Source: Podarcis melisellensis (Eukaryota). From it: 64,000 nt of DNA. The notes beneath the pieces are model-generated. The model searched no databases and was not told where the DNA came from. It worked only from the letters and a program-made list of their open reading frames with translations. Position 1 is the stretch's first letter. Each line of letters begins with the position of its first letter. The stretch lies in NCBI GenBank assembly GCA_964234715.1, contig OZ174275.1; one strand, written 5' to 3'. The translations under genes and the position numbers were made by a program. Positions 18,880-59,272 of the stretch are shown piece by piece.

Positions 18880-20180
18880 GTCCCGACTTCAATGCCCTCT
18901 ACTACACATCCGGCGCCTTCCAATGACTTACTTATGTAGCTAAAAGTGGGCGCGGATCGTGTACTCTTCTCGCGACAGCTTCTTCCTTGCCTCTTTCTGT
19001 AGTGGCTACTCCGATTCAAAATCTACAATTTCCTACCTCTGGGTCAGAAGATTCTTAGCCCACCTACCGTGTGACGCAAAAGCCTATTTTTTTTCCTTAT
19101 TGGCTGTCAGAAACATATCTAAGAAGCACGACGAGAAATGCCAAGAGAAATTCAATGGGGCGGGGGGGATGTAGAATTGTGTACAACCGTAGTCCTCGCT
19201 GACACTTCAGTTCTAGACCCTTTTTACCACCGAGCTGCAAAGCTATAGAGCGGCGACCATAGAGAATCATAGCTTTCGCGTTGGTTGGTTTTTACCGGAA
19301 GTTTAGGCTGCAGGTCACTGTCAATATTGCTTCCCCCCCCAATAGGCTAGGCCTATCGCGCTCTAGAAGTGGCGGAAACGGACTAGCTGGAACCGGAAGT
19401 AGTTGGAGTGGGAGGGGAGGGAAAGGACGTGGAGGCAGCGGCTCGAGCCGTATCTTCCTCTACCGCAGGTCACGTGGAGGTGGCGCGCTAGCCTCTGCTT
19501 CCACCTCCCCACCCCCACCCCCTCGGCGGAGCCCGGCGCGGCTGCAGCATGGCGGACACGGCCTCTCAGATGCTGCTGGGCTCCGGCCTCACGGTGCTCT
19601 CGCAGCCGCTCATGTACGTGAAGGTGCTCGTGCAGGTGAGGCCTTCAGTCCTGGCAGGTTTTCAGTGCTCGTGAGGGCGACGAAGGGGGCGGCACTGAGT
19701 GGGTGGGAGGAGGTCAAAGCAGCCCCAGGTCGCCTCCCGCCCTCGCTCACTGGGGAAGAAGTTGCCTCCTCGCTCCCAAACGCGTTTCCATAGCAGCGGC
19801 CCCCCCCCTCCTGCGTAGCCAGAGCAGCCCCTCAAAGTAGCGGAGTCGCCCTTCGCCTTTGGTCGTATCCGGGCCTTGCTTTGCTTCAGACTTCCTTTTC
19901 ACAGGGCGGCGGCTGCTCGCCTCCCTACCCCGAGGCGTAGCAGCAGCAGCAGCGCCGCCGCCCCGGCGGAGGAAAAAGAAAGCCGCTCGTAGGGCCGCGG
20001 GAAGCGCTTCCTCACTTTCGCATCATCCTGACAGCAGGCGCCGTCATTTGCAGTCCAACTTCGCTTTTGAGTCTTTCTTTATTGCGCTGCCTAGAACCGC
20101 AGGTGTTGAGGTGGGTCCGGCGAGGGGAGCCCTTGGGAATCCGCAGCCTCAGCCTGTTCTCTTCCAGAGTTGCTTGGTTA
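18880..20180. promoter_or_regulatory. CpG-island promoter of MTCH2
   Basis: CpG-rich stretch spanning exon 1, with ETS/GABP-type ACCGGAAGT motifs (~19294, ~19392), a GTCACGTG E-box (~19469), GC boxes and a TCTCGCGA motif (~18968). Confidence 0.75.
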
Positions 20181-23100
20181 CTTACGAGCCCTCCCTCGAG
20201 ACTGGTCGAGGGGAAAGACTTCCCCAGGGTAGAATTTCAGTCCAGTTGCGGTGAACGGCTGGGCAAGGGTCCCTGGGTCCTTTGCAGAGAGCCTCCCTGT
20301 TGTAGAAAGAATGCTTCCTGCGGGGTTTTGCTGCTGTCAAGCACTCCGCCAGCTGCTTGTCACACTCGCATGCCATCCTGCCGCAGATACTCGTGGACTG
20401 GCATTCCGTCTCTGATCCGTTGCACGAGAGTTTGTAACGCTGCCACTTTACCCTGCGGTGACACTTTAAGGAGACCCTGGCGTGGCGGTAACAGCAGTCA
20501 TGAATGAAACAGCACTGATCCACTGCATCCACAGGGCTTCCAGAACCACCAGTTCCACAGTAGCAGCCATATAGATTGAGTCCTAGCAGTGGGATTTGCA
20601 ACCGGTGCCGGTAACACCAGAGGGTCAAAATCAGATCCAAGACACTGCGTTTCTCTCGCTTGCTGCCTTTGCTGTGTCCGCATTCCTGAGAGAACAAAAT
20701 TGCCAGTGCTAGCCACAAAACAATCCTCATTGCAGAAGCCAATGTTTATTTTTAGCCAGTTTCAGACTGGCATACCTCACTCAGATGTTTTTGTGAGCCT
20801 GGCTGATTTCTGAATCTGGATCAGTTTTCTGCACTGGTTTTATGTGTGCCTCGTATTCAAATTTGTCCTCTTCTCATTTTTATTGGTAGCGTTTCGGACA
20901 CTCCCAGTAGTTCCAGCCTCAAGAACTTCTTTATTTAGTATATTTGGCTGCATGTTGCTTTTGGCCAGCTGTGGCTTTTTACTTGTATCATCATTGGCTG
21001 AAAAGCATAGCTGCCCCAGGTACAACAGCCCTGTCTGTTAAAATATTTAACAGCTTGCATATCCACCTTCTAATAAAAAATGCAGGAACGGGAAGCACAT
21101 TAGCATTTCTGAGTTTGGATACACAAATTCCTATACAGTAATATAAGGTTCAGAATTTAAGGACAAAAGACAATTGTGAGGCTTCCTGTTATTAACCTCA
21201 CAGTGGTTCTCATATGATTCACTACACAGAGGATATGTGGAGCTATGTAGTGGGATATCTATCTCAAAAATAAATACCGCCTACCTCTGCCAAGAAAGCA
21301 CATTGTCTTCTTTGGTAAATTGGACTTGTGAAACACAGTATCCAATTTGTCCGTAAAACGTTTTGCTAAATTGCAGACCTTGATAATGTGAGTTATAAAC
21401 TATGGAAAACATGTTGCCTAGTATGATATATTGTGACAAATCAAGTGGCTATTCACAGCATAAAAAGCAAAATATCTCCATGTTCTCAACTAGTTGTTTA
21501 ACATTTAATCACAGCAAACTTATCTTCAGAGTCACCTAGATCACATCAAGGACAAACATTTTAAAATACCTTTACCTGGTTGGAAAAAATGCAAGGGGGG
21601 ATCACTTTGGAGCAAAGAAGTGGGGGAATATAGTGTGTCTGTGGAGATACATGTTTGGTCTGTAGCTCCAAATTTTATTTAAAGTATTTATTTCCTGTTC
21701 TTTAGCCAAAAAGATTCCCAGAACATCTTACGACAATCACTAGTAAGACATATATATGTATAGCACTAAGAGATGGCACCTGGTATCCAGTGACTCTGCC
21801 AGACTTTCTGCTGAGCTGCAGACCACCCAGACATTTAATGTGAGCTACAAACTATTACCATCTTCTGAATATAGTGGTTTTAGAACTTTAAACTTACAGT
21901 TAGCAGCACAGCCATAGAATTCTAAGAACAAAAAATCGATCATATTTTCTCTTATGGTTCAGTTTTCAAATGTCCAGTGAGTGGAACAGCCATAGTTGTT
22001 CACTGCTAGGGAATGTTGGGGTTATTCCTTGGGGTGCTGTTCACACTGTAGAGGTTGCTGCAGGCTGTCTCTTTATTTTGAAGGTGGGATATGAACCCCT
22101 CCCTCCAACTCTGGGAAGAAATATCTTTGGGCGACAGGTCTACCAGCTGCCTGGTCTCTTTGCTTATGGTGAGTGCATAATGTATAAGATTTGTGAATCA
22201 GCCTTAAAGACTTAAAGCAGGATTGGATTGCTGTAATTGCTGCACTGCACTTGGCGGTGCCTACGCCTTTGAAGCAGAGCTTCTCATGTGTACAAGAATT
22301 AGCTAGAGATCCTGCAACTGTTGGAATAGTGGTAGTTTATATAGGTAAAGTGGTGAGTCTCAACTCTCAAGAAGCTTCAGTGCTACAGCCATGATCATTG
22401 GCTTTTGAATTCATGCAGTGAGACAAGAGTTAGAATAACAGGAAAGTACAATGTTTGGGCATCTGAGCCTCTCTCTTCCTGTAGCGTATTGCCCTTCAAG
22501 TATCCTTCATATGATTTAGCCTGTGCATGCATGTGCATGTCCCAGCAATGCCACACTTCATGCTCCGACTTGTATATTATTGGCTCTGAGCTTGCTTGCT
22601 TTCTTGCACACTGTTACTCAAACTTAGGATCATTAACAAGTAACTTGTTACTGCAACCCAGAGATGGGGGAGCTGTGACCCTCTAGATGTTGTTCAACTT
22701 CCTAACCAGTTGGCAGTATCTGGGAAACCTGTGACTTTCCCTCCTTGTTGTAGAGGATGGCAGAGTTTGGGAAGGGCAAGCCTGGTTCTGGTGCATGCTG
22801 ACATTATTTTAAGTGTAGTCCAATGTTCAGTTAAGCATGCTGAAATAAATAGGACATGAGCATACTTTGCTGTGCAGGAGATTATGCCTGCAGCTGTGTA
22901 TCGTGACCTTTGTACTGAAGTTTCTAACTTGGCATCAGGCCCTGTCTTTTCTAGCATAGGATAGGCCGAATTTTAAATAGTTTTGCATCCCTAGCTTCTT
23001 TTTTTAAAACACATTTTTGAGTGCTGGAATCTCCTCTAGGCAGGTGGGTGAATGGGGTGAGCAGTCGATGTTGAGTATTATCTTTTAATCTGTATTGACT

Positions 23101-26100
23101 TCTGTTTTTAGCTAAACACATTATGAAGATTGATGGAAGGGCTGGACTCTTCAAAGGTTTGACTCCTAGACTCTGCTCAGGAGCTATCGGCACTATAGTG
23201 CACAGTAAGGTTTTACAGGTACTATATAATTTTATTCTATAGCAACATTAGTATGCTAAACATTTCACAATCTGATAAAGTCAGCCATGCCCTGCTAAGC
23301 CCTGCCAATAAGGTTTTAGTTGCCTTTTTAAGGCAGTGAAAGTCGTTATTTGGAACACCTGTAGAACAGTGTGCAACTTCAGGTATTATTCCCACCTTCC
23401 CTAGACTCAAGTTGCGTTCTGTGGCTTGTCAGAGATTGGAAGGAATGCTTGCTATGGCAAATATGAGGAGGGTGTTTGTAGTTGTCTAGGATTAAGCCTT
23501 AGTAAACACAGTGGGCTGTTTCCACATGGAATGTATCACTTGAATGAGTTTTATCTGCTCCCCTCCTTCTCTTGTGTGCTCCCATTCATTAAATTGCATC
23601 CTCTTCAGTGTAAGGCCAAATTTCCAGTTTTCTTCAAATAGTCAGGGTATGGTATGTACTCAGCATTCACACAGGGGTTGTAAACCAGCTTAAAGCCTTG
23701 GCAGACAAAATTTGCTCTTAGATCACCAAAGCATAGCTTGGCATTTTATGGCCCAAGCCAACAACAGTTCCAAATAAAGGTATTTGCAAGTTATACTTTT
23801 TGGTTGCTGCCAATAATTATTGTGATTGATGCTGAGAGTGAATGGGAAGATACTTGACAGTTTCATGGGGTGGTTTCCAGCAAAGTATTTTATTAGTGCA
23901 AGGTCTTCTGGCTGTGCAGCAGAACTTCCCTTCCATCTCCTCTCCCCATGCATCCTCTAAATGTGTTCCAGGGGTTACCCCAATCCTCTGAAGCAGATTT
24001 TGGGAGGGTGCACGGGTGAGGAGAGTGAGATGAAGTTCTATTGCACTAACAGAACTACTGTTTTGGATACGACACATGGTTTTGACCATACAATCAGGTC
24101 TCTGAGCATCAAAACTGTTTATTTATAGGATGCACCATTTTGATCTAAATTTAGTTTAGCCTTGTTTTCTGTGGACTGCCTGGATTGCTACTGTGGCCAC
24201 TTGGTTGTGTCAACCTGTAAGTAGCAGTTTCAGTTTTTTAAGGCTGTTTCTCTGCTTTTAGTTACACAGAAGAACTAGATTGGCAGATGACTCAAATGCA
24301 CATTGCTTTCAATAATTAATCTGTGAAGAATCCTATATAACTCATAGATATATATGTAGTGTTGTTGACTTAGAATACATCTTGGAGAAATCACTGAACA
24401 TATTATGGAATAATAGTTGCAGAGTAACATGCAGGTTTTTATAGGTATATGAAAATCCTTCAGAAGTATCGTATTTTTCCATCTATAAGATGCCCACATG
24501 TATAAGAGGACCCCTATTTTTTCAGCCCAAAATTAAGAAATAAATATTTTAAACTTTCTGTGTATAAGACGACCCCCAATTTTAAACTTTAAAAATTTGG
24601 GGGAAAATATAGTCTTATACATGGAAAAATATAGTATGTATTACTTTTTCCCAAAAACTCAGCTGGCTTGCAATAAGAGTACAAGAAGTAACATGTACTT
24701 TCTTTTCCTTGGGAATAATTCAAGTAACAATCTTGAGGACATTTTTGAAACAGACGGCATGGAATATTGAAATATATTTAAAAAATTAAAAAATTGTCCA
24801 GTAGCACCTTAGAGACCAACTAAGTTTGTTCTTAGTACTGTATAAGCTTTCATGTGCATGCACACTTCTTGAGATACACTGTATCTGAAGAAGTGTGCAT
24901 GCACACAATGCTTATACCAGGAACAAACTTAGCGTATTTTTCACCCTATAGGACGCACCGTCCCATAAGGCGCACCTAGTTTTTTGGGGGGGAAATAAAG
25001 GAAAAAAATTATTTCCCCCCCAGGCGCGGGGGAGGCCCAAGCTTCCCCCGACCCCAGCCCCCAAACAGGCAGCTCTCTGCAAGCCGTGGGAGCCCAGCGC
25101 TGGCTCCCGCTGCTTGCGGAGAGGTCCGCGAAGCCTGGAGAGCGAGAGGGGTCGGTGCGCACCGACCCCTCTCGCTCTCCAGGCTTCAGCGAAAGCCTGG
25201 ATTCGCCCCATAGGACGCACACACATTTCCCCTCCATTGCGCACCGACCCCTCTCGCTCTCCAGGCTTCAGCGAAAGCCTGGATTCGCCCCATAGGACGC
25301 ACACACATTTCCCCTTCATTTTTGGAGGGGGAAAAGTGCGTCCTATAGGGCGAAAAATACGGTAGTTGGTCTCTAAGGTGCTGCTGGACATTTATTATTT
25401 TTTATATATATATTTTGACAGCGTCAGACCAACACAGCTACCTACCTGAATCTAGAAGCATGGAATATTCTTATTCTTATTAATTAAATTTATTAGACAC
25501 CTTTTCTTGCAATCCAATCGTGGGAATGGGAAAGTGAATGCAAAGACAATTAGGTATGCTTAAAATGCTGAGAATGAGAAGATAAGCCATGGGCTCATTT
25601 TTCTCTGTTTTCCTACTTCTAGCGCTGCCAGGAAGCTGATCAAGTTGAGGTAAGTAGGTTCTTAGCTTTTATTTGTTTGCATGAGTTGCTTCTCCCTTTC
25701 CCACCCAAGTGATTGCTCCTCTATTTCCCTTCCCTGAGCTCATGGGTATTGGGAGGTGGCTGCTGCCTGTATCAGATGGTATGTAGAGTAGTGCATTCTC
25801 TGGGAGTTCTGGGGTTCTCCAGAATATCTTCCATCCAGAATTAGACAGCACAACAAGATGCCTTCTACAGACAGCACTGGAAATGCCGTCACCCCGTGAC
25901 TTCTGATGCTCATTTTTCTCTCCAGGACCCAGGGATCAGCCCCAAGGAATCCTCGTCCTCCTTAGAGCAAGTTGTTAAGGAGGTAAGAGATGGATTCATT
26001 TGTCATGGGCTAAGCTGGGATGTATTAGGATTTCACATGCACAGGTGCCAGGCTTGAATGGTGACAATCTGTTCACTGACAGAACTGATCAAGCATTGCG

Positions 26101-29100
26101 TTTTGGTTAAATTAACATGGGCAGCCTCCAGGAATAGGAGCCAAGTTGGGCTCCCCTTCAAAAGAGGCACTGCCACCTACCCACTTCTAAAAGATGCTGG
26201 GGGAGCAGCAGGGTGTGTGAGGTGAATGACTGGGTGGCAAAGACAAGTCAGGCAGTGGGGAACCCTTTAGAGCAGTGGTTCTCAAGCTGTGGGTCCCCAG
26301 ATGTTGAACTACAACTCCCATCATCCCTGAGCTCTGGCCTTGCTAGCTAGGGGTGATGGGTGTTGTAGTTCAACAACATCTGGGGACCCACAGGTTGAGA
26401 AAGGCTGCTTTAGAGCCTATGGGGCCCTTGGTTGGTGCCTGGCAATGGTGCAGAAGTGTCCCACATTGCAGCCTGCCAGTTTTGTTCCATATCAGTGAAC
26501 AGAGGCCAGGAGAACTGACTTTAAGCATGCAATATTAGGTTGTAATTAGCCCAGGGTTCTCCTTGCCCGAAGGAGCAATTTATTCTCTCCTCCCATTGTG
26601 CACTGTCCTGGGGGTTCTCTCAATCCTCCAGAGCAGATTTTAGGAGGATGTGGCAGGAGGAGAGGGAGGGCAAGTCCTGTTACGTGAGTGGAAATCCTTG
26701 CATTGGCTTTTATGGGGGGGACGGGGGGGGGGAGCACATTGTACCTTGGGCAGGGCTTCTGCTGATGAGTTTGTTAGGTGAATCCCACCCAGTATGACAG
26801 GATGTCTACAAGCTGTTTAAAGGGGAGTGTACATCCAGGCACAGAAGTCCTAAAACTAGAGAGATGAGGCACCTAGAAAGAGCCCTTCCAGTGTGCTATA
26901 GTGGGCAATAGGATGCACTTGGAAAGTCTGTGCCTAGCATGATAATAGAGCAAAGCACGGTCTCTAAAAGAGCTGAAACCTGTGGCTCGGCTGAAATTGG
27001 CTTTGATTGGTAGAGGAATTATAAACTCAGTTTTAACCTCAAAGTGCAGCTCCTTAACACAAATGCTTCGAGTTGTAACTCACACTAAGTGACAACCATT
27101 AGGTGCTTTAGTGGAACCTTGTCAGATGGGGAGCATTCTGTCACCTTAAATCTTGCCATTTCCTTGGCTGGCTTTTTGCTGATGTTTTTGCCATTCCTTT
27201 TGGTCATAGACTTCTCAAGAGATGATTGCACGTTCTGCTGCTACGCTAGTCACCCACCCTTTTCATGGTAAGTAGGGGCCAGTAGCCCTTTGGTCACTGC
27301 CAGCACACATTTACCTCCCTGGCAACAAGAAAGAGGAAAGTCATTCACCAGCCTTTCCTTGTTACATTCAGGTCCCTTCATGGTCATTGTTTTTTGTGCT
27401 TCGGGTATCCATCTTGCACAGTGCTGGCGTTGATCAATCATCTGATATGTAATTATTTCCTGATGACATTTATACTCCGTTTTTCCTAATCAGCTGAAGG
27501 TGCCTAACAAAATGAGTCAAAACACACTGGAAGCCAGTGCAGCTGTTTCAGTAAGGGGGTCACATGGTCCCTGTACGCAGCCCCTGTTAACAGGCTGGCT
27601 GCAGCATTCTGCCAATTGTAGCTTTCAAAAGCAGCCCAATGCAGAGAGCATTGCAGTAATCCAAACGTGATGTGTATGAGGCAAGTGTTGTCGTGACCAA
27701 GAATGGGCATAGTGGGCACACTGGTGTCAGCTAGGCAAAGGCATTCTGGCCACAGCTGTCACTTGGGCATCCAAGGTCATAGCTCCTTACCATGAGCCTG
27801 AATTTTCAAGGGGCATTCTATTCCATTTTAACTGTGGTTGAACCCCTGTTCCCGAACCAGGGGCATATCTGTCCTGTCTGAGTTAAGCTTCAATTAGGAG
27901 AGTGGCGAAGTAGTGTGTTCCTGTGTTGGCCTGAGTAGGGGAAAGAGAGTGGGGAGGATCCTTGCTGATGTCATTTCCCTTTTCCCTCCGTCCTTGTCCT
28001 TCAGTGATCACGTTGAGGTGTATGGTGCAGTTCATTGGCAGAGAGACCAAGTACAGGTATGTGCATATTTGTGACCAGGCGGCTTCCTTTGGACTTTAGC
28101 CCACAAGGCCAATGCCTTTTTTGTAGGAGAAGTTAAAAAGAGGCCAGGGAGTAATTAGTGTGTGAGCACAGAGGTTTCCTGTCATTGTTGAAGTTGAAAA
28201 CGGGGAGGGGGTCAGGGAGAGCCACTTGTTTCTTGATTTCTGAGAGTAAATGAATTTCTTTCTTAATTTTCAGTGGGGTATTGAGCTCCTTTGTCACCAT
28301 TTACCGGGAAGAGGGCATCTTGGGATTTTTTGCGTGAGTACTTCCTTGTGTGAGTGGGGGGGGTGAACTTCCTTTTGTACCTGCGATGGTTGTTGGTTCA
28401 TGGGGGACATGGGGAACAGGGAGGGACAGAGGACGAGTCCAATTATGGCAAGAGCTCGTGGGAGGCAGAATGTTTGACTAGTTGAAACTTTGGTCTAATT
28501 CATTTTTTTATAATATTTTTTATTGGTTTTCCAACACAGATAAAAAACAAAACAACACACTCACATAAACAAACGAAAACATACAAACATGTATAATTTC
28601 AAAAACGTTTTTTTCATAACCTTACTTCTCGGACTTCCCCTTACCTCCCCTTTTCTGCATCCTTGTTTTAAAAATTTTTCAGCAACTATTCAGACCAATT
28701 AATTAATTACTTATTTTCTTTTTAAACTTCTTCTAACACTTAATCAGTTACATATTTACACACTTAATCAGTTCTATATTTTCCTTTCCCCTGACATTTT
28801 AGCATTCTTCAATTTTACAACAATTTTTAAGATATACTTTAAATTTCTTCCAATCTTCTTCCACCGTCTCTTTTTCTTGGTTACGGATTCTGCCGGTCAT
28901 CTCCGCTAGTCCCATGTAGTCGATCACCTTTGTCTGCCATTCTTCCAGTGTGGGTAGTTCTTGTGTCTTCCAATACTTTGCTAAGAGGATCCTTGCTGCT
29001 GTGGTAGCATACATAAAAAACGTCCTATCCTTCTTTGATACCAATTGGCCGACCATGCCCAGGAGAAATGCCTCTGGTTTCTTATGAAAAGTACATTTAA

Positions 29101-32100
29101 GTACCTTCTTAATTTCATTATAAATCATTTCCCAGAAGGCTTTAATCTTCGGGCAAGTCCACCAAAGGTGGTAAAAGGTTCCTTCAGTTTCATTACATTT
29201 CCAGCATTTATTATTGGGCAAATGATAGATTTTTGCGAGCTTGGTTGGGGTCATGTACCACCTGTAAATCATTTTCATAATATTTTCTCTTAAGGCATTA
29301 CATGCCGTAAATTTTGGTCTAATTCAGCCGAGATTTTCTTAAGCAGATTGTGATATTTCTTGGGATAATGTGTAACATTGTTCTTAGCACTAAAGTTGAT
29401 CAGCCTCCCATCATGGAAATTCAGCCAGACTTTCTGCCTCACACACTGGAGGGAAGCGTGCATATGTATATAAGATGTTTTTTCCAGGCAGTATGTGGCC
29501 TCACTTATCAGTTTTTTCCCTTTTCCAGGGGCCTTATTCCCCGCCTGCTTGGGGACATCCTGTCCTTGTGGCTCTGTAACATGCTGGCCTACCTCATCAA
29601 TACCTATGCACTGGAGAATGGGGTAAGTAGACTACAAGTAGTGTGGTGTATGGGGTGTGGACAATGGAGTGCTGGGCTCAGGTAGGCAGGTATGAAAGGT
29701 TTCCTCCCCTAGCCTTGGTCAGCTTGAAAGGTCCCTATCATGGTCCTGCTGCACATCCTCCTGAGCAATACAGTGGAACCTCGGGTTACGTTACCCTCAG
29801 GTAATGTAAAATTCGGGTTGCAAAAGCGGCAAACCTGGAAGTGTTTCGCTGCGCGCACATGTGCAGAAGTGGTCTCTCCGTTTGCGATAACTTTGGGATA
29901 TGGCTGGACCTCCTGAACGGATCCCGTTCACAACCAGAGGTACCACTGTATATCCTTTTTGTCCTCAACCTCTGAATGTGGTTGTATGTTGCTACCTCCA
30001 TTACATCTAGTAATTTCAGGCAGCTCCTTCAGATTTTGCTCCATTGCAGGGATTATGATGGACTTGGGAGTGACTACTCTTAATTGAGGAACAGGGGTCA
30101 GTTACTTTATTTCTCTTCTTTCTAGGTCTCCACCATGACTGAGATGAAAAGCTATTCTCAGGCTGTCACTGGAGTGAGTGTACAGTTCATTTCTCTTTCC
30201 TGTGGGAAGAGGGGGTGGGTTGTGTCCTGAGGATGTGAGCGTAGGCTTGAGCACTTCATCCTGAAGCTGGGGGTGATGCTGGTGATGTCCTGTGCAAGAA
30301 GCCTTGCAAGCTGTACACCTCAAGATCTCTGTTCAATACCTTTGAGATCCGTCTGATCTCTGGTGCTGAGCTCTTAAGTAGGTGCTGTTGCTTGGCTCAA
30401 ACTACTGTTCGGCTTAAGCTGAACAATTACCAGCCGTTTCATTTTATCTGCTTCGTGATTGCTGTGAACTCCTGTCCTGAAACAGAATTGCGACTACTGC
30501 AATAACGCATCACTGCCCTGTGGAGCTCCTTCTCTCTAGCCTAAGGCATACTCCCTGCAACTACAGGGTGACTGTTCGATTTGCTGTAGCTCTAAGAAGC
30601 TTCTGCCATTAACAGGCCATCAGCTGGGTGGGGCTTGTGAAGGAAAACAGGGCTGTTTTCACTGGTGTATTTTGCTGTATTGTATCTACAGTTCTTCGCC
30701 AGTATGCTGACTTACCCCTTTGTACTCGTCTCAAACCTGATGGCCATTAATAGTTGTGGGTGAGTGCAGAGTCTGATTTCTTTAACTTGGCTTTTGATTG
30801 TGTGTTTTCAAATGTATAATACAAGCAGTTCAGTCTCATTTAGTCTTGGTTTGTCAGGTCCCTTTCCTTCAAGAAGCAATGAGAGTTTTAGCAATGTGCT
30901 GCATCTCGCATCTGTTCTCTTCATATTTTCAGCAGCTGCTTTTCAGTGTTTAGGTACCACAACCCACAGAGCTTGAAAATAAAGCATCTGACATGGAAAG
31001 TCTCCTAGAATAGCTTTTAAGGGTTTAATTTAAAAGTTCAGTGGTCAAAGAGCCATCTCCTTCACTGCGCCCTGCCTATGTTCAAAATAGTTGTGGCTGG
31101 AGATGCAGCTAAGGACTTCTAAAAATTTGAACCTGGCTTTCAATCTTGTGGTCATCTGCAAATCCAGTAAATATTTTTAAATTCATGTGGACACTACAGG
31201 TCTATTCAATAGATTTCCAATCTCAAGAGAAAATAAGGGATCTGTCCTGTTTCTGCCCGTTGTTGTCAAGCTTTTTTATTATTCATTTTTATCTTACTAC
31301 AGTACATGGTTTATTGGTGTTGATTCTAAGAGAAGGGGGGAAATGTTTGTATTTTTCTTCACTTATCTCTACATTATTCAAGATTTTATAAACCTCTTGC
31401 ATTCTCCTCCGAACTCGTGTTTTTGTTTTTGTTTTACACTCTCTGGACAAATAATTTTGCTTTGCTTTACACCAGAGCTGACTCATCATGGTAGTAAAGA
31501 TGGGGTTTGGTTTTCTGGGTGCCTTGCCTTGTACACCACAGCAAAAAGCTGGCTGCAAGCCTGAACTGCTGGTGTACAAATGCATTTTTATCTAGAAGGA
31601 ACAGACCTTTTACTTCGCTCATTGATTCAGACCTGTGTCACTCTCTTTTTTTAATATAAAAGCTCAGCCTGAATGTTCTTCGAAGTAATTGCTCTAGTCT
31701 AGAAGTTGCATCTGGGCTACTGTTTCCCAAGTGACTATGAAACTAGAAATGGATGCTCTGCACATGGGATATTGTTGGTGAGCCATTTTGGTAACTTACC
31801 CTGGTCTCTTGCTGTTTTTCAGGCTCGCTGGTGGCCTCCCTCCTTATGCCCCAGCCTACTCATCCTGGTTACACTGCTGGAGCCAGCTACAGGGGGAGGT
31901 ATGTCTGTCTTGTCTGCCCTTTCATTAGAGGACCATAGCATATTGCCCTTGATGTGGGTGGGAGAGGAATAATTGGCAATACAGAGTCCCCCTCTCCAAT
32001 TCTTCCAGGGGTTTTGGCCGTTGGGTACACCAGCCTCCCAAGCAAGGATGCTAGACCAAGATGTCACTGTGTGGCTTGGGGTGCCCTCACCTCTTCTGGG

Positions 32101-32508
32101 TGCATTCCAGCTGCCACACCGTGTTGATGTTCCAGGGTGGGCAAGCGTCATAATCTTGGGGCTTAGTTTTATGGTTGGGAGAGCCTTGAAATAGGGAACC
32201 CTCTCCAAGCTCTTTCTTTCTTCAGGAAAGAAGAGAGAGAGAGAGAGAGAGACTCTGCCCCCACTCCAGTTAAAACAGATTATCCTTGACAGAATTTGAC
32301 CCTCAATAGGGGGGGAAAACCCCTCTGTATTTGTTGCTGGAAAGATGCTGGACCTCTGTCCCCAAAGTCTCAGTCTCTATTCACATTCTCTCTCATGCCT
32401 CCTTTTTCCTCGTGTTTTCAGGGTAACATGAGCAGAGGGAACAGCCTGTTTTTCCGGAAGGTGCCTGCAGGGAAGCGGTATGTGTGGGAAGAGAAGAGAT
32501 TTCACTGA
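19549..32508 (+). CDS. MTCH2: Mitochondrial carrier homolog 2 (301 aa, 13 exons)
   Basis: Exons 19549-19635, 22084-22168, 23112-23218, 25623-25649, 25926-25982, 27210-27267, 28005-28056, 28274-28333, 29529-29622, 30126-30173, 30692-30759, 31823-31898, 32422-32508. All introns are GT-AG and the 906 nt are in frame: [57 protein letters not shown]...[15 protein letters not shown]. Confidence 0.97.
20078..20083 (-). terminator. Candidate polyadenylation signal of the nested PLA2 gene
   Basis: TTTATT on + (AATAAA on -) about 100 nt downstream of the PLA2 stop codon, in an otherwise GC-rich region. Confidence 0.6.
20182..20730 (-). CDS. Secreted phospholipase A2 (group I/II/V/X fold, group-X-like Cys pattern), single coding exon, 182 aa precursor, nested antisense in MTCH2 intron 1
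   Basis: ATG at 20730 (GCAATGA, in-frame TAA 18 nt upstream). Hydrophobic signal [14 protein letters not shown], dibasic REKR site, Ca-loop [11 protein letters not shown], active site [15 protein letters not shown], 16 Cys in the mature chain, AATAAA about 100 nt after the stop. Confidence 0.92.
24469..24634. mobile_element. Short degenerate Tc1/pogo-type MITE
   Basis: TA-TCGTATTTTTCCAT.TATAAGA...TCTTATACATGGAAAAATATAG-TA imperfect TIRs. Confidence 0.65.
24795..25453. mobile_element. Inverted (foldback) Penelope-like pseudo-LTR remnant, interrupted by a MITE
   Basis: Left arm TGTCCAGTAGCACCTTAGAGACCAACTAAGTTTGTTC...GATAC is the reverse complement of right arm GTATCTGAAGAAGTGTGCATGCACAC...GAACAAACTTA[MITE]GTTGGTCTCTAAGGTGCTGCTGGACA. 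The family call is from recalled squamate Penelope ends. Confidence 0.65.
24932..25362. mobile_element. MITE family A copy 2, nested
   Basis: Same TIRs as 2251-2587, TA-flanked, inserted in the right arm of the foldback; carries an internal duplication and a 58-bp perfect palindrome. Confidence 0.88.
26273..26407. mobile_element. hAT-type palindromic MITE
   Basis: CAG...CTG termini, near-palindromic body, perfect 8-bp TSD CTTTAGAG (26265-26272 and 26408-26415). Confidence 0.85.
27520..27900 (-). mobile_element. L2-type LINE fragment
   Basis: Degenerate ORF2 motif [10 protein letters not shown]...[16 protein letters not shown]. Confidence 0.7.
28503..29312 (-). mobile_element. 5'-truncated L1-clade LINE with target-site duplication in MTCH2 intron 8
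   Basis: Open ORF2 C-terminus with CCHC knuckle (CWKC...HLWWTC), A-rich tail on -, perfect 14-bp TSD TTTGGTCTAATTCA (28489-28502 and 29313-29326). Confidence 0.9.
29771..29948. mobile_element. Tigger/pogo-like MITE
   Basis: TA-CAGTGGAACCTC...GAGGTACCACTG-TA. Confidence 0.8.
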
Positions 32509-35738: not shown

Positions 35739-38700
35739 TCACAGCAGAGAAATGGGTGTATGCAGGTCATAGGACAGAAAGCAACTAGTAAAGTTGACTT
35801 CAAGGCATTGTAGGGCTCTCTGCATTGATGTGTTGTTTTCCAGGACATCACCATAGACTGGGTAATTGAGGCTTTGTAGCTTCCTGCCTAGTGCTGCTAT
35901 CACCAGCTGAATGTAGCCTTTGCCACGGTGCGCTGGCATGGTGTAAGCATGGGTCAGGCACCCAAATTGATCCAGCAGGACCCAAGAGATAGGACATCCT
36001 CCAGCATCCAGAAGGCAACTACTAGGGAAGCAGTCGATTAGCCGAGTCAGATAGCAGAGACTCTGCTCATTGCCACCTACACTCCAGGTCTCATTCAGCA
36101 GGGCAGCATGAGTGGTGTTGAGAGATGAGAGTTTCAGCTCTGATCCTGACCTGAAGAATGAAAGAAAGGTTAAGGCCTACCTTCAGAAGTAAGACTTAAG
36201 GCACAATGAACCAGCCAGCTACAGCACCCAAGTGTCAAGCTTGAAGTCTGCAGATGGAGCTGGGGTGCCCTGCAACCACCTGAAGGTTAACATGACAAAA
36301 GGTGTAACTGAGCTCTCTGTGGGTTTTCTAGATCTACGAGCACATGGTGGTGCTTGTTTGATCTCTAGTCATGGAGAATGGGAGGCCCTAGCTAGTTTAT
36401 TATTTATTAAATTTATTCCCTACCGCTATTAGTGAGGGACCCAGTTTTTATGCTGACTTCCTTACTTGGGCTACATTTTTCCATAATTAATTAAGAGGGA
36501 ATGATGAGTGGCATTGTTATGAGACTTATTAAATGCCACTAATGTTGTTTGTTCCTGTACTTGCTGCAACAGAGTTAAATCTTGAATATTTAATACAGGC
36601 TTCCTCAAACTTGGCCCTCCAGATGGTTTGAGACTACAATTCCCATCATCCCTGACCACTGGTCCTGCTAGCTAGGGATCATGGGAGTTGTAGGCAAAAA
36701 GCATCTGGAGGGCCGAGTTTGAGGAAGCCTGATTTAGTACCAGCAAAGATTTAGTACAGAGGAGCTCATTACCTTGTGTAGATGCTATTAGCCCAGTGGA
36801 CTCATAGTAGTATAAACTACAGCTATGCTTTAGGTACCGTAAGTTGATCCCACTCTACAGATGAAATGTTTCAGGAATATTAATCCTATGAAAGCACAAT
36901 CCTTTATTGTAATATTTATCAACAGTACTGCCTGCCCAGTTGAATGTCCTCCCCTCCCCTTCCCATTTTACAGAGAACTTATCCGGTGGCCCTGATGAAC
37001 ATTACTAAGTATCTGCCTTTTGTAAAGCCTACAAATATGATTTACAGAGATACACAAACATTGGCTTACTAGCCAGCCATTGTTTGTGCTTGCTCCTAAT
37101 CACCTTGCTTGTGTTCTTGGGCATGTGCAGAGTACCTGGGTAAGAAACGGATCATCTCTCATTTGAATTATGGGGAAAAATCAGAAACATTGAGGAGTCT
37201 TTCTGCAGTTACAACTGCCAAGGTCCTTGTCCTTTCTTTCTGAAAAGATAACTCTGCCTAGCATAAGAGTCACCTCTTGGCTTTGAGTTTATTTCCTCTT
37301 GCACATATTTCCCCCTGTTACAGGCCTCCAGTGAGTGGGCACCATGCTCTAAATTACTAGTGCACTGGCAAATGTCTCCTGCCTTCCTTGTATTGCTTGC
37401 TACCTGCAACCCCTGAGTCATAGTGTGTGACATACGTGGGTGTGGAAGAAGACAAATTCAAGGGTTCCTGCAGAACAAAAACCTGGGTCCGAGTCACCAG
37501 CTTTGCGGAGAAATGCTTGGCAGCTGCTAGGTTTTGAGATGTCTGATACACACCATCCTGCAGACCTGGGTGTAGAAAATGGTGAGGGGATTATTGAGGT
37601 GCTCAGAGGAGAGGGGCAGAAGTCGCAGAAGCATAGACCACAACTCTATTATGGGAAAAGTAAAATGGTGATCACCTTAAGGAAGCCTTGCTCTGACTAG
37701 TGAAGAGGATTTCAGCAGCACCAAAACTAAGATTTTCTTCCACAGATGCAGAACAAGTGACAATAACGCTTCTCTAAATGCATATGCTAATGTTGAAACA
37801 GTTTAGAAAAGTACACACACACTCTTAAAACTTGTGCATACAATATTCCTTTTTTAAGAATTCTAAATTAGTAACACTGGCACATGCACAGAACTTTGGG
37901 TGTTGAGGTGTCTTACCCTGAAGTAAGAATTCTTGTTTCCAATCAATGGCATCAGAATCTTTCACCAATTTCTCATAGGCATCTAGGTCCTTATAGAAAA
38001 CTGCACAAGATTGGGTAAAATAGTTCCTTTCTGAAGGCACTTTCTAGGCAAATACAAGCAGGAAAGATGGGAAGAGGTCATTCCTTTGCACACACTAGCC
38101 CACCTACGAGTCTTCATCTAAAGAGCAGGCATAAAAAGCTTTAAAACAGGTGGATAAGATTTTTATCATGGCAAACCCTCTGCAAGACATAGGCAACCAC
38201 AGAAAGCACACATCAGATTGCTCATCTGATCAGCGACAAATGCCCCTCTTCAGATGATGGAGGTGCAATTTGCATCCAGCCTCAGATGATCAATCTCATC
38301 ATTTTTAAAATTTCTCCCCTCTTTTTGCTCCTGCTCCCAATATCAGGGAGGTCTTTGATCTGATCAGGCCTCTGGGTTGGGGGTTTGCCACCCTCGTTTT
38401 AAACTAATTAAGTGTTACTATGCAAAATATGTGCAGTTTTTCTGTTTTAGGGGGCTCAAATGACTCCCCCCACTAGCATATCTGATGTAGAGAACAGCAT
38501 TTCCCTAGCATTCAGCTGACAATATTTCATTGCCAGGAAAATATGCCCCAGCTTGTACCTCATTTATGAGTGTGCTGTGGAAAGTACTTGTGCAAAGGAG
38601 TTAGGCACCTGTTGTGGTGTTGTTGGCACCCTGGCAAGAGATAATTTCCTGCACCAGGAATGCTCCACCTCCCACTCCTATCTTCCCCACTATGACTCTT

Positions 38701-42800: not shown

Positions 42801-45800
42801 ACGCTTTATACATCTAGAATTTTGCTAACTCGAGGCTGATTCGTGCCTGCCTTCGAGATGGAGGGATTCTTCCCCCACCTCGCCCATAAATGTGCATTTT
42901 GCAAGCTGTGCTTCCAAGTCCACTTCGAATATGTGACGGGAAGGAAGTATGTGTGTGTATGTGGGGGGGGTGTCTTATTTATTTAATAAAATGTATACAC
43001 TGCTTGGGGGACGCGGGTGGCGCTGTGGTCTAAACCGCAGAGCCTAGGGCTTGCCGATCAGAGGACCCTGCCTCAACCTTCAAAACAGGATCATATTTGC
43101 AATGAGAACAGATTTGGTGCTTGTAAACTGAATATGCGCATTAAAATAGGATAAAGCCACACCTGTGCTATCGGTAAACAGTTTACAGATTAATCTGCGT
43201 AATTGGATAGTGAAGACACTTGACATGTGTTGCTTCTCCCAGTCCTAGTATGTGTGAGAGAAACCTTTATTCCTTTAAGAAGGGCCATAGGTGAGTAGCA
43301 GATCAGGTGCTTTGTATACAGGTTCTGCACCAGGCATCTCCAATTAAAAGGAACAGATAGGAAGGGAGAGGAAAGGGCCTCCTCTTCCCGAGACCCTGTT
43401 GAGCAGCTGCTGCTAGTCAGAGCACGCAACCCTAAACTAGGGGGCAAATAGTCTGATCTGCTATAAAGTAGCTTCCTGGGATAAAAGTCACCTAAGCCAT
43501 CTTCAGCTAGTAGCAGATCTGTGTTTATAAGACGCTGAAGCCCCTTCCTGCATTTACACTTCCTAATGCAGTAAACTCCTCCCCCCTTTATTCTCTGCCT
43601 GAGAATTTGGGGGACAGAGACATTTATTATCATTTCCTACAGCTTCATGAATAACAGTTTCTTCTGGCCCAGTAGCTTGTGAGACCTGCTGCTCAATCCA
43701 CCTGCATAGCAGTATGGTTTGGTTAGTGGGCTGGTACAGGCTTGCGTTTAAGTCGTAGCCATGGGTGGCCAGGACTTGCATGTAGGTGAGTGAATGGGCT
43801 AGCAGAGGAGGGAATGGAGTGCTCTGTTCGTCTGCATCCGGCTTGGTACTACAACTCTACAGTCTTTCTTTGCCAGCTCCCAGCTGGCTACTAAACATTT
43901 TTGTAGGCTAGGTCACTTTTCTGGGCTTATTTAAAACCCTGGGCTAGGACTTTCTATATCTATTTGCTGGTTGATTTGACCAGTTATTTAAATGGATGTT
44001 GAGAATCAAATTTGTATTTATTTAATGCTTCCCATATAAAATCCCAAAGTGATTTAGCAACATCCATTTGTTTGTGTGTGTGTGTGTGTGTGTACATGTC
44101 AAGGACAGATACAGACGGGGTGTGTGTGGTGGAATGCCACTTGAAAAGCTTATTGTAGAAAATGAAGGTTATTTGATAGGCACCGAAAAGATGAAAGAGT
44201 TGGTGTCTGCTTGATGCCATGAAATGGAGCTTCATAGGGTAGGTACCACCATGTTAAAGGTCCAGTTCCTACAGTGCATGGGATGGATCAGCTAATAAGC
44301 TGAAATTTCTACAAACTCTGTTCTGAGCTTGATTACACTAACTCTTTCACTTGTATACAGTGAGGGCAATGTACTGTGTTATTAGCTTTATTCGTCATAT
44401 TAGAAGTTGGTGTGATACCACGCCAGTCCCTTGATCCAACCACTCTGCTTCCCCTTCTCTTCAGGTGACCTTCCACTACCGCACACTGCTTTGCAGTCCG
44501 GACCAGCGAGTCTTGGATGACAGCCGTACCCGAGGGAAGCCCATGGAGCTCATCATTGGCAAGAAATTCAAGCTGCCCGTTTGGGAGACTATCCTGCACA
44601 CCATGAGAGAGGGAGAGATGGCTGAGTTCTTGTGTGACACAAAGGTAATCCTTGTGGGATGATCAGCCTCATAGAATTGTTGAGTTGGAAGGGACCATGA
44701 GGGTCATCTAGTCCAATGCCCTGCAATGCAGGAAGTGGGGCTCAAACCCATGACCGTGAGATTAAGAGTCTCCTCCTCTACCAACTGAGCTATCATAGAA
44801 CCAACATTCTTAAGTCTTAATTAATGCATGAAGGGGTTAATGCCACAGAATAAGCTGTCCTGCCAGGCTTAGTTAGGTCACTTCCCCTGAAGGCATCAAT
44901 CCTATTGTACTAACCTCCAGGCACATCTACCTGAGAAGCTCAGCATGGCTCTCACAAACCACTCTTTTGAGTTCCTAGACCAATCATTTAGAAACTTTAA
45001 CCACTTTGTAACTTAGCCAACTTTTAGTGTCTGTGCAACTTTATGAAGCCATTCGAAGTCAGTAAACCATTTTTAACTTACCCAATGTGTGGTCTTTTTC
45101 TGTGTTAGGGGAGGAAGAAAACTTTGGAAGGAGCTTGGAAGGGTGTATTATGAAGGTCTAACAACTTATATTTCCACACTTTATTTTGCTGTATATTTTG
45201 CTATTTTAAATCTGCTGGGGTTCTCTCACTAAACAGTACTTCCCTCAGACTTGGATCTTGGCATCCAGGTACTCTTCTTTCTATATACCTGTTTTTAAGT
45301 TGAACCCAGAGCCCCCACTTCTGCAGCAAGCTAGCTTGGTCTAGTGTGGGAAGTGGCTTAGACATACCAGGCAAGGAGAGGTCTCTTCCCTAGCCCTGGC
45401 ATCTGTAGTTTCCCTAACACATCCTTATGCTTTCTTGGTGCAGAATTGGAGTTTCCTTGGCTGCAGCTTTCAGGATTCTCCTTCCACAACTCACAACTAA
45501 GTATTTGGATCTGGCACAGGTGATGGAATGCCAGATTTGTTCTTTTTGGAGAGACAATACACCATTTCAGCATGTGCACAAAATTTTATCTCATATCTTT
45601 GGGGCTGATGGTATTCCCTGGGAGAGGTTCTACTCTCCTAGCAAGAAGGACTATGCCTGATCTTTTCTTTCTTTCTCTCCAGCATGTGGTCTTGTACCCA
45701 ATGGTGTCAAAGAGCTTGAGGAACATTGCGGCTGGGAAGGATCCACTGGAGGGACAACGGCATTGCTGTGGCATTGCTCAGATGCATGAGCATCACTCCC

Positions 45801-47695
45801 TGGGTTACCCAGACCTCGATGAGCTGCAGCAGAACCCCCAGCCCCTCATCTTTGCCATTGAGATGCTCAAGGTGAGGGGAAGGAAAGGTGAGGTCCTCTG
45901 GGACAGTCAGAATCAGGAGAGTGATGGCTCTCTTGTGTATTTGGGAGTTTCTCCTGTATGTGGGTGTATGGATGTGCAAGAAGGGAGGAGAAAGCTGATT
46001 CCCAACAGATCTGTCTTGGTCTCTGCTTTTATTTTCTTGGCTAAGTCCATGAGATAATTTTGCTAGCTTTTTAAAGGTACCACACAGGGATGAAGCAGCA
46101 GCTGCCTACTGAGAACCCTCCTATTATTTCACTTCCCCCCAGTTTCATAAATCTCATCAAAGACGTGTTTTTTTCTTACCTGTGCCCTGGGATGCAGAAG
46201 GCACACAGTCAGATGGGCTCTTACAGTGCTCACATTGCCCCCGCTATCTAACCCAGCCTGCTGCCTTTGTGCCTTGCTTAGGTGGAAGTTCCTGGCACAT
46301 ACCGGCAAGATCCTTGGGCCATGTCAGATGACGAGAAAGTGAAGGCCGTGCCCCTGATCCACCAGGAAGGCAATGAGCTCTACAAGGAAGGCAAAGTGCA
46401 GGAGGCAGCTGCCAAGTACTATGATGCCATCGCTTGCCTCAAGAACCTGCAGATGAAGGTGACTGAAGGCGCGTCTTCCTCACACCCTAGTGCAGCTTCA
46501 CTTTTGTCTACACATTTGTGTTAAGAGGGTGGGTGTGTCAGCTCCGAATGTAGCAGGGATCCAACCTCCCTTGCATCATGCTGCAGAGGCAGATGTGAGT
46601 TGTGGATTGATAAGCAGGATTGGCACCGCATAAAGGGCAGCCCTGCTTCCTGCGCAGTTCCTCCCGTCTTTCACTCCATAAGGTCTGCTCTAATGGCAGA
46701 GCTTCCAGGAGGCCACTCCTTTTCAGTCAACAGGGCCCTTGGTTGTGCTGCCCAGCCATCATAGCACCTCTGTTCTCATATGTAGGGGAACCTTTGAAAT
46801 CCTCCAGCTGTGCCTCACACTCCTTTCCTTGTCCTGTACCCCAGGAGCAGCCCGGATCCCCAGACTGGATCCAGCTGGACCAACAAATCACCCCTTTGCT
46901 GCTGAATTACTGCCAGTGTAAGCTGTTGAACGAGGAGTATTACGAGGTGCTGGATCACTGCTCCTCTATTCTCAACAAGTATGAAGGTAAGGCATTTGGC
47001 TGGCCACACCATGCCCTAGTGGGGACTGGGAAGCAGCTCTGAAAATAGGGAGTTGTGGGATTTGATTAATCTAACTTTGTGTTGTGAGGGACTGCATGTG
47101 GGGGCAGAGGCGACCTACTGTGGTTTTAGAGAGCCTGCCTGGTATAGTGGTTAACGTGTTGGACTAGGACCTGGGAGACCAGGGTGCAAATCTCTCAGAC
47201 ATGAAGCTCACTGGGTGACCTTGTGCTATGCTAGTCACTGTCTCCTAGCCTATCCAACCTCACAGGGTTGTGAAGATAAAATGAGAAGGGGAGAACCCTG
47301 GTGCACCACCTAGGGGAAAAGGTGTGATATGTGTCATTTTAAATAAATAAGAGAGTCCTTGCATGTAACTGGGGTTGAGGGGGGAGCTTCGTATTGTGCC
47401 CTGGTTGAAAGTGGAATAGACCACTGGGTGGGCCTGGTCAGAGTGTACGGAGCCTGCCTGCATTACTCAGGTGCTGGCTCTCCCCGCAGATAACGTCAAA
47501 GCCTACTTCAAGCGAGCCAAGGCCCATGCTGCTGTTTGGAATGCAACCGAAGCGCAGGCTGACTTTGCCAAGGTCTTGCAGCTGGATCCGTCGTTGGGCC
47601 CTGTGGTTGCCCGGGAGCTGCGTAGCCTGGAGACCCGCTTACGTCAGAAAGAAGACGAGGACAAGATCCGTTTCAAAGGCATATTCTCCCAGTAG
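42544..47695 (+). CDS. AIP: AH receptor-interacting protein (FKBP-like domain + TPR), 330 aa
   Basis: Exons 42544-42642, 44465-44644, 45683-45871, 46282-46458, 46845-46986, 47490-47695. 993 nt in frame: [76 protein letters not shown]...RFKGIFSQ*. Confidence 0.97.
43008..43063 (+). mobile_element. 5' head fragment of a Sauria-SINE-like element
   Basis: GGGACGCGGGTGGCGCTGTGGTCTAAACC...GGGCTTGCCGATC; matches the head of the inverted copy near 60350. Confidence 0.65.
44669..44793 (-). mobile_element. tRNA-derived SINE (tRNA-Lys-like head, CR1-like tail)
   Basis: On -: ATAGCTCAGTTGGTAGAG...GACTCTTAATCTC...GGTTTGAGCCCCAC, then CCCTTCCAACTC...TTCTATGA. Confidence 0.7.
47129..47350 (+). mobile_element. 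MIR-like tRNA-derived SINE
   Basis: TGGTATAGTGGTTA A-box-like head, CTGGGTGACCTTG and CCTCACAGGGTTGT core motifs, AATAAATAA tail. Confidence 0.6.
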
Positions 47696-56900: not shown

Positions 56901-59272
56901 CCGCTAGTAGAGGCCATCTGAAGCAAGCTGAATGCCCCTTCTTCCCTGGACATCTTTGCCTTGAAAATTCTGCCTTCGTTCCTACCTCTCCGGCACTGGT
57001 ATGAGAATTGATGGTAATTTGACAGGAACCTCCTCCGTGGCAGTAGACGGTGGTGGTCATTTCCTCCCGGGTGATGAGGGCCTGTATTTCCTCCTGGGAG
57101 GGGACAAACTCCCTGCTCTTGGTTCTTTTCAGTGAATCAGTGATGAACTGAGAATAGCGATCTATTTCAGTGCCTGGGAAGAGATCTTTTACTCTGGTTG
57201 AGGGAGGGTGAGGAGAGAGAAGAGATAAATAACATATTGCCATTCTCTCATGAAACAAACTTTGACCTAGAACCGTGTCATTTGTATAGCGAGGCCAAGC
57301 CAACTCAAGAGGCTGTGCGCTACCTACAGCCTATGAAGATGTTGTATCACTCAATATAAGCAAATTTCATTCATTTGGACAGAGGTTATTTACTGTTTTC
57401 TGCCTCTGAGACCAATATTTACACCTTTGTCTAAAAATATCAGGACCAGCTTGGCACTGCTGCTGAGTAGAAAGCAGGTATGAGGGACAGTAGTACAGGA
57501 AGCACTGGAGTTTTCACAAAGCAAGGTGGAGGTAAATTGGGGGTGGGTGGCCTCTGCAATGATCTCTAAGGATGCAAGTATTAGGCAAAGGGCCTCCTGT
57601 TTTGCATGCAGAAGGTTCCTGGTTCTACTCTGGCTAGGACTGAATCCTGGAGAGCTGTTGCCCTTCAGTGGAGATAATACTGAGATGGTCGGACTGATGG
57701 GCTGACTCAATATGAAGCAGCCTTCCTATGTTTCTGTATGTCTGCAGCGACTGGTGCTATGTAATGCATTCCTCAGTTCTCTGGAGTCAGGGAGCTAGCT
57801 ACAATTGCAGAGAAATTCCTCCAGGATGGTTCTTACCTTCTGAGGTGGAACTTGAGGTAACGGAGGATTCCTCTGCTGGGCAGGAAGGTGCAGCTCATGC
57901 AGGTCATCAGCTGCCAGTGGTGAAGGTTCCCCGGTCTGTTGGGCTGTGGCACGTGGTTTGTCTGCTTGATCAGCTGACAGTACACCTCGTCCCGGAGGGG
58001 CCTGAGATCATGGCAGGTCTGCAGAATGCCCTGGATAATGGGGATGGGGTCCGAGACTGTCTCGATCTCCTGAAGGGAGTTAAAGATCTTCATTGCTTCG
58101 TCCTGGAGGCTGCTGTAGCCTTTCTCTTGCTGCACTGCAGTGGGAGGAGGCGGCACAAACAACAAGGCAGGGAGAAGGCAGTCAGTATGTCCTCCAACTA
58201 CGGACTGGCCAGCTGGTAGTTCATCACTCCAGGAAACACATTTGCTCATGCCCACAACCCAGTGGAGAAAGGAAACTCCTCTGACAATTATCACTACCCA
58301 AAGGTCACTTGAGAGACAATCCAGTTCCCCGCATTAGAAATGGTTACATGATAGGGCTATGATTCTGCTCTTTTCTTAATGCACAATTCTTTGTATATCA
58401 GCTAGTTAATTCCATTTCACTGGTAAGTTCACTGCATCTTCCCACTTCTACAGTGTTTTTTTAAACATCAGAGTTCAGCAGGAGTCAACACAATAACTCT
58501 GATTTACAGTGCAATTCTATGCATGTTTATTAGGATGTAGGACCCACTGAGACTTACTTCTGAGTCAGTGTACACAGAATTCTTGTGCACACTCAGCTAA
58601 GAAGTAAGTTGCACTGAAGTTGAACCTACTTTTGAGGAAACGTGTATACTGGGTTGCACTGTAAAGCTGGATGACCTTCACCCTGGCAAGATTCTGCCAC
58701 AGTCCCCTCCCAGCCTCTAAAAAATATTCCTTTTGAACCCTTGACATAGCATCCTCAAAAGCCACCAAGTCACTCACAGTTGACCCCAACGTCCCCATAT
58801 GGCAGTGGTAGAAGCGGTGAGTGCAAGGGGTGCTGGGTGTATCTCAGGATAGGATTCCTCCGGTAGATCTGTTCTACCACTTCAGGGTTCATGCTGTTCT
58901 CCTGAAAGGAAGGGGTGGGCAAATAGAGGTTACCTTTACAGGGCTTCTCTCTTTCCCTCCAACTATCTAATTGCACTATTAAATGGAAGTGCTCCCAGTC
59001 CATTACAGAAGAGATAAAACAACAGTTAAAGGCCTTGCACTGCAAAAATGGCAAAGTGGTCAGAAACAGGGGAAACTGCCAAACCAAGTCCATAGAAGGA
59101 TTTGGAGATCACTTTATATCACAAAATATCCAGAGTATGTCAGGCCAACAACAGCCCTCTCATCAAAAGGAATTCTGAATATTTAGAAACACACCATGTT
59201 CTGACAGATCATAATATTGCTTTTAGTTGTTGTTGAATAAAATGTGCATCTACACCTTTCTGCCGATTTTAA

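Follow-up and report, generated by a model that had tools for sequence, protein, structure and literature searches.

The repertoire of vertebrate secreted phospholipases A2 (sPLA2s) was defined from 11 mammalian enzymes, and for group X both maturation by furin and catalysis by a His/Asp dyad are established, according to PMC7603386 and, for the dyad, PMC11594849. Here we describe a further sPLA2 gene in a stretch of 64,000 nucleotides from the lizard Podarcis melisellensis (NCBI GenBank assembly GCA_964234715.1, contig OZ174275.1), called the window below, with positions counted from its first letter. The gene lies antisense inside intron 1 of MTCH2, and it probably encodes an intact, secreted, Ca2+-dependent sPLA2 of a separate subfamily that likely arose as a group X-like retrocopy before sharks and bony vertebrates split. 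In the accounts consulted, an intron-free copy inside the intron of an unrelated host is the general pattern of nested antisense retrogenes; unlike typical examples, this one is apparently far older, encodes a secreted enzyme and has no confidently identifiable parent.

The open reading frame (ORF) runs unbroken on the minus strand from ATG to TAA (20182-20730; 549 bases, 182 codons), with an in-frame stop five codons 5' of the ATG (stop-to-stop frame 20185-20745), and when the dinucleotides of the host intron were shuffled 500 times, a frame of this length appeared once. The Pfam profile PF00068 places it in the sPLA2 family (E 2.3e-27, 96.1 bits, curated cut-off 32.1), with profile positions 16-108 spanned in one piece, and a search of the PDB matched 153 distinct sequences, all of them sPLA2s among the 60 listed. 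Hydropathy of 2.0-3.0 across residues 1-15 predicts a signal peptide of about residues 1-20 with a putative cleavage site (20671-20730), followed by a short basic propeptide that ends in R-E-K-R, a furin-type site (20647-20670). The single PLA2 domain has a mature length of 128 residues (20263-20646), 16 Cys in the group X pattern and a basic calculated isoelectric point (pI) of 8.8, and it leads into a variable C-terminal tail of 26 residues (20185-20262) with an N-W-T sequon (Asn at 20245-20247). Its active site is intact: the calcium-binding loop Y25-G33 in mature numbering (20545-20571), H48-D49 with Y52 (20488-20502), Y73 (20434-20436) and D99 (20359-20361) are all present, with Y28, G30, G32, H48, D49, Y52, Y73 and D99 corresponding to ORF residues Y57, G59, G61, H77, D78, Y81, Y99 and D124. 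An AATAAA 99 nucleotides past the stop (20078-20083) is a candidate polyadenylation signal. An AlphaFold model of moderate confidence (predicted local distance difference test 64) superposes on solved sPLA2s with template-modelling scores of 0.7-0.8 over the target, led by an IB enzyme into which the group X disulfide pattern was engineered, and the ESM Atlas returned generic PLA2 clusters only.

The host is identified by tblastn with a named MTCH2 protein, which places 13 exons from 19549 to 32505. Coding exon 1 (19549-19635, plus strand) lies within a CpG island, intron 1 has GT..AG ends and 2448 bases (19636-22083), and exon 2 follows at 22084-22168. Raw RNA reads of a close relative skip exactly 19636-22083 in all four runs (588, 597, 112 and 98 reads), and exon 2 as a query found 306 proteins; of the 120 listed, almost all that bear a name are MTCH2. 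A sequence-only reading of the window had put an uninterrupted 182-codon minus-strand frame wholly within this intron, with a signal peptide, an REKR propeptide, the Ca2+ loop and the catalytic residues, an upstream in-frame stop and a downstream AATAAA; the ORF and the spliced reads bear this out in full. That reading also called the gene intronless, which holds for the coding sequence; the transcript may have a 5' untranslated exon.

Compared with the known sPLA2 groups, the protein shares several features with group X (PLA2G10; PDB 1le6, 6g5j): the C11-C77 and C50-C-terminal pairs, a basic furin-type propeptide, no pancreatic loop, and an intact dyad and Ca2+ loop. Its 16 Cys align column for column with those of three group X proteins, one of which is group X by its PDB match (E 2.5e-77). 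By the canonical pairing, such a set gives eight disulfides that include both the group I-specific and the group II-specific pairs. Unlike group X, it has one coding exon, within MTCH2, rather than the multi-exon structure of a PLA2G10 locus, a C11-Y25 spacer of 14 rather than 11 residues and an extra C-terminal tail with a sequon; it falls outside the group X clade in the free tree, and it is 37-41% identical to the two intron-bearing group X-type genes of this genome (C14, C4). With group IB (PLA2G1B) it shares the C11-C77 pair, the propeptide and the dyad, and its top PDB match (1y6o) is a porcine IB enzyme with engineered group X disulfides, but it has no pancreatic loop, carries C50 and the C-terminal Cys, and is 34-36% identical to the two IB genes of the genome. 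The C50-C-terminal pair, the basic charge and an identity of 37-41% recall group II (the PLA2G2 cluster and viper venom PLA2s such as crotoxin B), from which it differs in having C11, C77 and a propeptide, in lying outside the four-gene C8 cluster and in forming a separate clade. The otoconins OC90 and OC22 share the sPLA2 fold, and OC90 is a weak neighbour in the tree; OC90, however, has two domains with degenerate sites, in contrast to one domain with a full active site, and the genome has separate intron-bearing OC90-like and OC22-like genes.

Scanning the entire genome with PF00068 produced 35 matches among 39 candidates, and only the nested locus covers the domain in one frame. The other 10 sPLA2 genes each match in three pieces, split at profile positions 41/42 and 79/80; we class them as four group II-type genes (clustered on C8), two IB-type, two X-type, one OC22-like (C8:20.58 Mb) and one OC90-like (C7), the last two labels being ones we take from sequence features. 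All 10 paralogues have a GT donor two bases past the D42 codon, and a donor by the C77 region was found in 8 of 10 (of the other two, the script mis-picked one and did not locate the other). In a typical Pla2g2 gene an intron interrupts the signal peptide as well, as described in the main text of 10.1101/583344. The joint absence of three introns suggests retroposition. The locus is single-copy, no second copy having been found in this genome by protein or DNA search, and it is 34-41% identical to all eight assembled paralogues, so it is not a recent copy. That it is a separate sPLA2 locus, as had been proposed, is borne out by PLA2G10, PLA2G1B and PLA2G2 genes that lie elsewhere in the genome and have introns. 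A search of 30 kb of C6 for an ohnologous PLA2 copy or remnant in MTCH1 intron 1 found none (best profile E 1), and a weak PF00068 match on C2 was discarded as noise (E 0.11). As a separate matter, the lizard has two group X-type (C14:8.92 Mb, C4:72.72 Mb) and two IB-type (C16:23.36 and 25.75 Mb) intron-bearing genes, compared with single human genes.

Database searches delimit an orthologue tier of 94 sequences, near-duplicates included, by a clear gap (at least 144 bits, against at most 101 for the rest). Proteins of this tier occur in 69 named species: 18 squamates, 17 turtles, 20 amphibians, the coelacanth, 5 sturgeons and paddlefish, and 8 sharks and rays; the Komodo model, counted among the squamates, is truncated and stands outside the 94. 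The nearest record, from Podarcis raffonei, differs at 1 of 182 positions, and the mature core is identical in three Podarcis-type sequences. None of the 94 proteins departs from H48, D49, Y52, Y73 or D99, from the loop glycines or from 12 of the cysteines (fixed in the loop are G26, C27, C29, G30, G32 and G33), and position 28 is Y in 70, H in 21 and F in 3. Identity to shark, sturgeon and coelacanth proteins is 55% in the mature core, compared with 10-28% in the signal and tail; for the signal and pro regions it is 11-21% (shark and coelacanth). An R-x-x-R motif precedes the mature start in 81 of 94 (it is missing in 3 Anolis proteins, and 10 models are incomplete), and 59 of 92 tails carry a sequon within 14 residues of the last core Cys. 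No named member from a mammal, bird, crocodilian or teleost appeared among the members of the 20 PLA2 clusters that were listed, some of them unnamed, which suggests rather than proves that the subfamily is absent from these groups.

Several lineages depart from this picture. Elapid models from 4 of 4 species (P0068, P0066, P0229, P0231, P0232) have no family signal peptide, which colubrid and viper models retain; four of them begin at a Met inside the mature helix, and in a second cobra model the N-terminus is unrelated. To judge from these models, elapid orthologues are possibly undergoing lineage-specific decay. The Anolis orthologues (P0007, P0234, P0236) have lost the basic propeptide together with the furin-type site. 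Long branches lead to the Xenopus members and to one unnamed amphibian-like protein (P0034, P0038, P0289); this, with the acidity of the X. tropicalis member (pI 5.05), suggests a changed function. A sister family confined in these data to rays and skates (P0042-P0044, P0097-P0101, P0293) has the 14-residue C11-Y25 spacer and 16 Cys, is acidic (pI 5.0), has Y73 replaced in 9 of 9 members, and is absent from the lizard genome.

The link to MTCH2 extends to other reptiles. It could be judged in squamates and turtles with a recorded NCBI accession and contig size for both genes, and in 8 of these 9 species the PLA2 and MTCH2 lie on equally long contigs and have near-adjacent accession numbers: P. 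raffonei (XP_053256506/495), Crotalus tigris (XP_039210306/304, 1.7-Mb scaffold), Thamnophis elegans (XP_032073961/939), Rhineura (XP_061465451/446), king cobra (ETE72712/715, 0.66-Mb scaffold), Paroedura (XP_077176972/966), Mauremys reevesii (XP_039390893/891) and M. mutica (XP_044870000/XP_044869999). The ninth, Terrapene, is a mismatch, and its MTCH2 consists of 89-residue fragments on small scaffolds. One PLA2 (P0225) and an MTCH2 exon 2 read-through (P0102) both come from 2950-base contigs, which fits nesting. The sequence-only reading had suggested looking for the gene in MTCH2 intron 1 of relatives; what the records give is tight linkage across squamates and turtles, that is, linkage and not intron position. 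Bird-like read-throughs, unnamed proteins in which exons 1 and 2 match those of chicken or pheasant exactly or bear a passerine signature (P0107, P0108, P0115, P0109, P0111, P0112, P0274-P0281), have an MTCH2 intron 1 of 126-129 or 87 bases (255 in the outlier P0110), compared with 2448 in the lizard. The nested PLA2 is likely gone from MTCH2 intron 1 in those birds, because the intron is too short for a 549-base ORF.

An sPLA2 phylogeny covering IB, II, X and the otoconins, which had been proposed as a check, gives the nested family a clade of its own, joined by the ray-only sister family at 100/99 support and outside the X (96/89), IB (98/94), II and otoconin clades (OC90 100/99). This tree has 59 rows (33 of 92 were removed as long branches or near-duplicates) and 131 columns, unnamed rows are labelled by best BLAST hit, and its bootstrap is not fully settled; a quick tree of all 92 rows left the nested family unplaced. 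Within the main tree the family groups weakly with X and OC90 (82/70). The history we tentatively put forward, at somewhat under even confidence, is one retroposition into MTCH2 intron 1 before the radiation of jawed vertebrates. The gene would then have stayed active and nested for more than 400 million years in sharks, sturgeons, the coelacanth, amphibians, turtles and squamates, have been deleted independently in birds, mammals and teleosts, and be decaying or redirected in elapids.

Several observations weigh against an old, active, group X-derived gene, and we take them up with the alternatives on which they bear. The first concern parentage. The best likelihood found came from constraining the family to join group X (+1.1 log-likelihood units, p 0.53 in the approximately unbiased (AU) test), yet AU tests reject no parent (PLA2G10 subclade -2.2, p 0.42; II -4.5, p 0.29; IB -9.7, p 0.16), and the free tree puts OC90 adjacent, weakly (85/15). 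The cysteines and the propeptide favour a group X-like parent, which the tree leaves unproven. The earlier proposal of an old PLA2G10-like retrocopy is partly supported, by the absent introns and the X-type features. The weak proximity of OC90 would also suit a real, selected protein whose main role, otoconin-like, is that of a ligand or mineral scaffold rather than a lipase; the absence of Y73 from the ray sister family (9 of 9) and several unusually conserved solvent-facing stretches point the same way. Such a role is nonetheless improbable, given catalytic residues and loop glycines without exception in the tier, when the OC90 domains of this genome have degenerate His-Asp motifs.

A second set concerns expression. 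In four RNA libraries from a close relative, with tissues unrecorded and 6-12% of each run read, depth over the PLA2 ORF is 0-0.9, like the rest of the intron, compared with 45-1137 in exon bins, and in the two stranded bulk libraries none of 30 bins holds a PLA2-strand read, all reads being MTCH2-oriented; intronic MTCH2 pre-mRNA would contain the PLA2 stretch anyway. With this scope, the result excludes broad high expression only. Some orthologue models also look damaged: three turtle RefSeq records are marked 'LOW QUALITY', the Komodo model is truncated, and elapid models have no signal peptide. A processed pseudogene that is silent, or an antisense frame due to chance, would account for the four libraries without transcript and for the 'partial' P. 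muralis and gecko RefSeq models, which suggest no 5' RNA support. Conservation largely refutes it, however, with an open frame and an invariant active site in 69 named species, and it is further opposed by the identical core of the Podarcis-type sequences, the rarity of such a frame in shuffles and four Rhineura RefSeq transcripts, so that we give it almost no weight. These four transcripts lead to one protein, and records from two frogs bear isoform names, a hint of RNA support and untranslated exons in Rhineura and frogs. Of the earlier description of a functional locus, conservation with an invariant active site is borne out, and the two stranded libraries gave no PLA2-strand reads.

Two toad records were considered separately. 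A 10-residue de novo peptide from parotoid secretion, given in PMC6707386 (best match a Xenopus member, E about 3), was rejected as evidence of expression because at most 8 of 10 positions match the family and three proteins of other groups match equally well. A toad skin contig at 0.72 transcripts per million with a 'minor isoenzyme-like' best match, from PMC6267030, could not be tied to the nested subfamily.

The remaining points touch the age of nesting. Nesting and exon structure are seen directly in this lizard genome alone, and nesting elsewhere is suggested by accession and contig-length proxies; the minus strand of the intron has no A-run of six or more as a poly(A) remnant, whose survival at such an age is unexpected (target-site duplications were not searched). 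An ordinary intron-bearing sPLA2 lineage might have persisted in fishes and amphibians, and a retrocopy made on the reptile or amniote stem have entered MTCH2 and replaced its parent. In keeping with this, linkage is testable only in squamates and turtles, with no amphibian or shark MTCH2 among the 120 proteins listed of 306, and upstream exons are possible where two frog isoform records differ at the N-terminus and two chondrichthyan models begin within the mature domain. Against it, the tree roughly tracks species phylogeny with no separate parental lineage, the lizard genome holds one copy only, and no amphibian or fish protein breaks at the canonical intron sites. We regard this later origin as unlikely, and a retroposition before sharks and bony vertebrates split as the likelier course.

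If the ancient gene is active, it would be transcribed antisense to MTCH2, perhaps in a restricted tissue or stage, and its signal peptide would route the protein to secretion. By analogy with group X, a furin-type convertase would cut after REKR and free the N-terminal helix. The eight-disulfide enzyme would then bind membranes, its basic surface probably favouring anionic ones, and phospholipids would be cleaved at the sn-2 ester by the His48/Asp99 dyad, with Asp49 and the loop holding the Ca2+.

No description of a nested PLA2 locus turned up in the literature searched, although an unnamed tree tip may stand in figures, bioRxiv supplements or subscription papers; MTCH2 is unmentioned in the main text of 10.1101/583344. 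Database names of the orthologues are automatic ('crotoxin-like', 'taipoxin-like' or similar), with no curated gene symbol among the records listed, and the venom-like names reflect best BLAST hits only. This agrees with the earlier expectation of an automated 'PLA2-like' annotation on an apparently uncharacterised gene. The protein might nevertheless be an sPLA2 already named, for example a group X-like or IB-like gene of fishes or amphibians, since subscription papers and supplementary trees (the habu genome Fig. S6, with 31 non-venom PLA2 genes) lay outside the reach of the search; with automatic '-like' names and no description found, we hold this to be quite unlikely. The subfamily is conserved, automatically annotated and apparently uncharacterised; it may work in a group X-like way, and it is not filed as PLA2G10.

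Further features of the window lie around the nested gene. Upstream of it, no TATA-like site above chance was found near the ATG, and a non-coding stretch at 20900-20965 (minus strand) resembles the same region of the relative P0225 (tblastn with its N-terminal read-through, E 0.005 against the upstream intron alone; not recovered in a whole-window search), a weak candidate for a regulatory element. A minor alternative donor in MTCH2 exon 1 (window 19613-22084, a 2470-base skip with GT..AG ends, 2-12 reads in 4 of 4 runs) would shift the frame. Downstream of MTCH2 are a glycine N-acyltransferase-like gene (35742-36176, minus strand), an AIP-type gene (45524-47039, plus strand) and a MyTH4-FERM gene (54580-59108, minus strand); a cytosolic carboxypeptidase gene is the probable upstream neighbour, because the Crotalus model P0249 fuses it to MTCH2. 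Within an MTCH2 intron, 28802-29323 (minus strand) is presumably the 3' fragment of a long interspersed nuclear element (no Pfam match), and we take 2200-2616, 24915-25391 and 61975-62397 to be three copies of one dispersed repeat.

The sequence-only reading had seen the locus as relevant to reptile PLA2 and venom-gene evolution; its scope has proved gnathostome-wide rather than reptile-specific, and no venom link was found. Because its close relatives span sharks to snakes, it probably represents an old and unnamed branch, apparently lost in birds and mammals, of the family from which snake-venom toxins also arose. Venom-evolution studies would thereby gain a non-venom outgroup, and labels such as 'crotoxin-like' and 'taipoxin-like' can mislead toxin surveys. 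The locus would also be a nested retrogene of great age whose natural loss is clean, as the shrunken bird intron shows, and so of use for understanding how a host and a nested gene coexist. The chemistry of the nested PLA2 is ordinary, and what is new is a branch of a well-known enzyme family: a deeply conserved extra sPLA2 lineage, seemingly missing in mammals, that alters the ancestral count.

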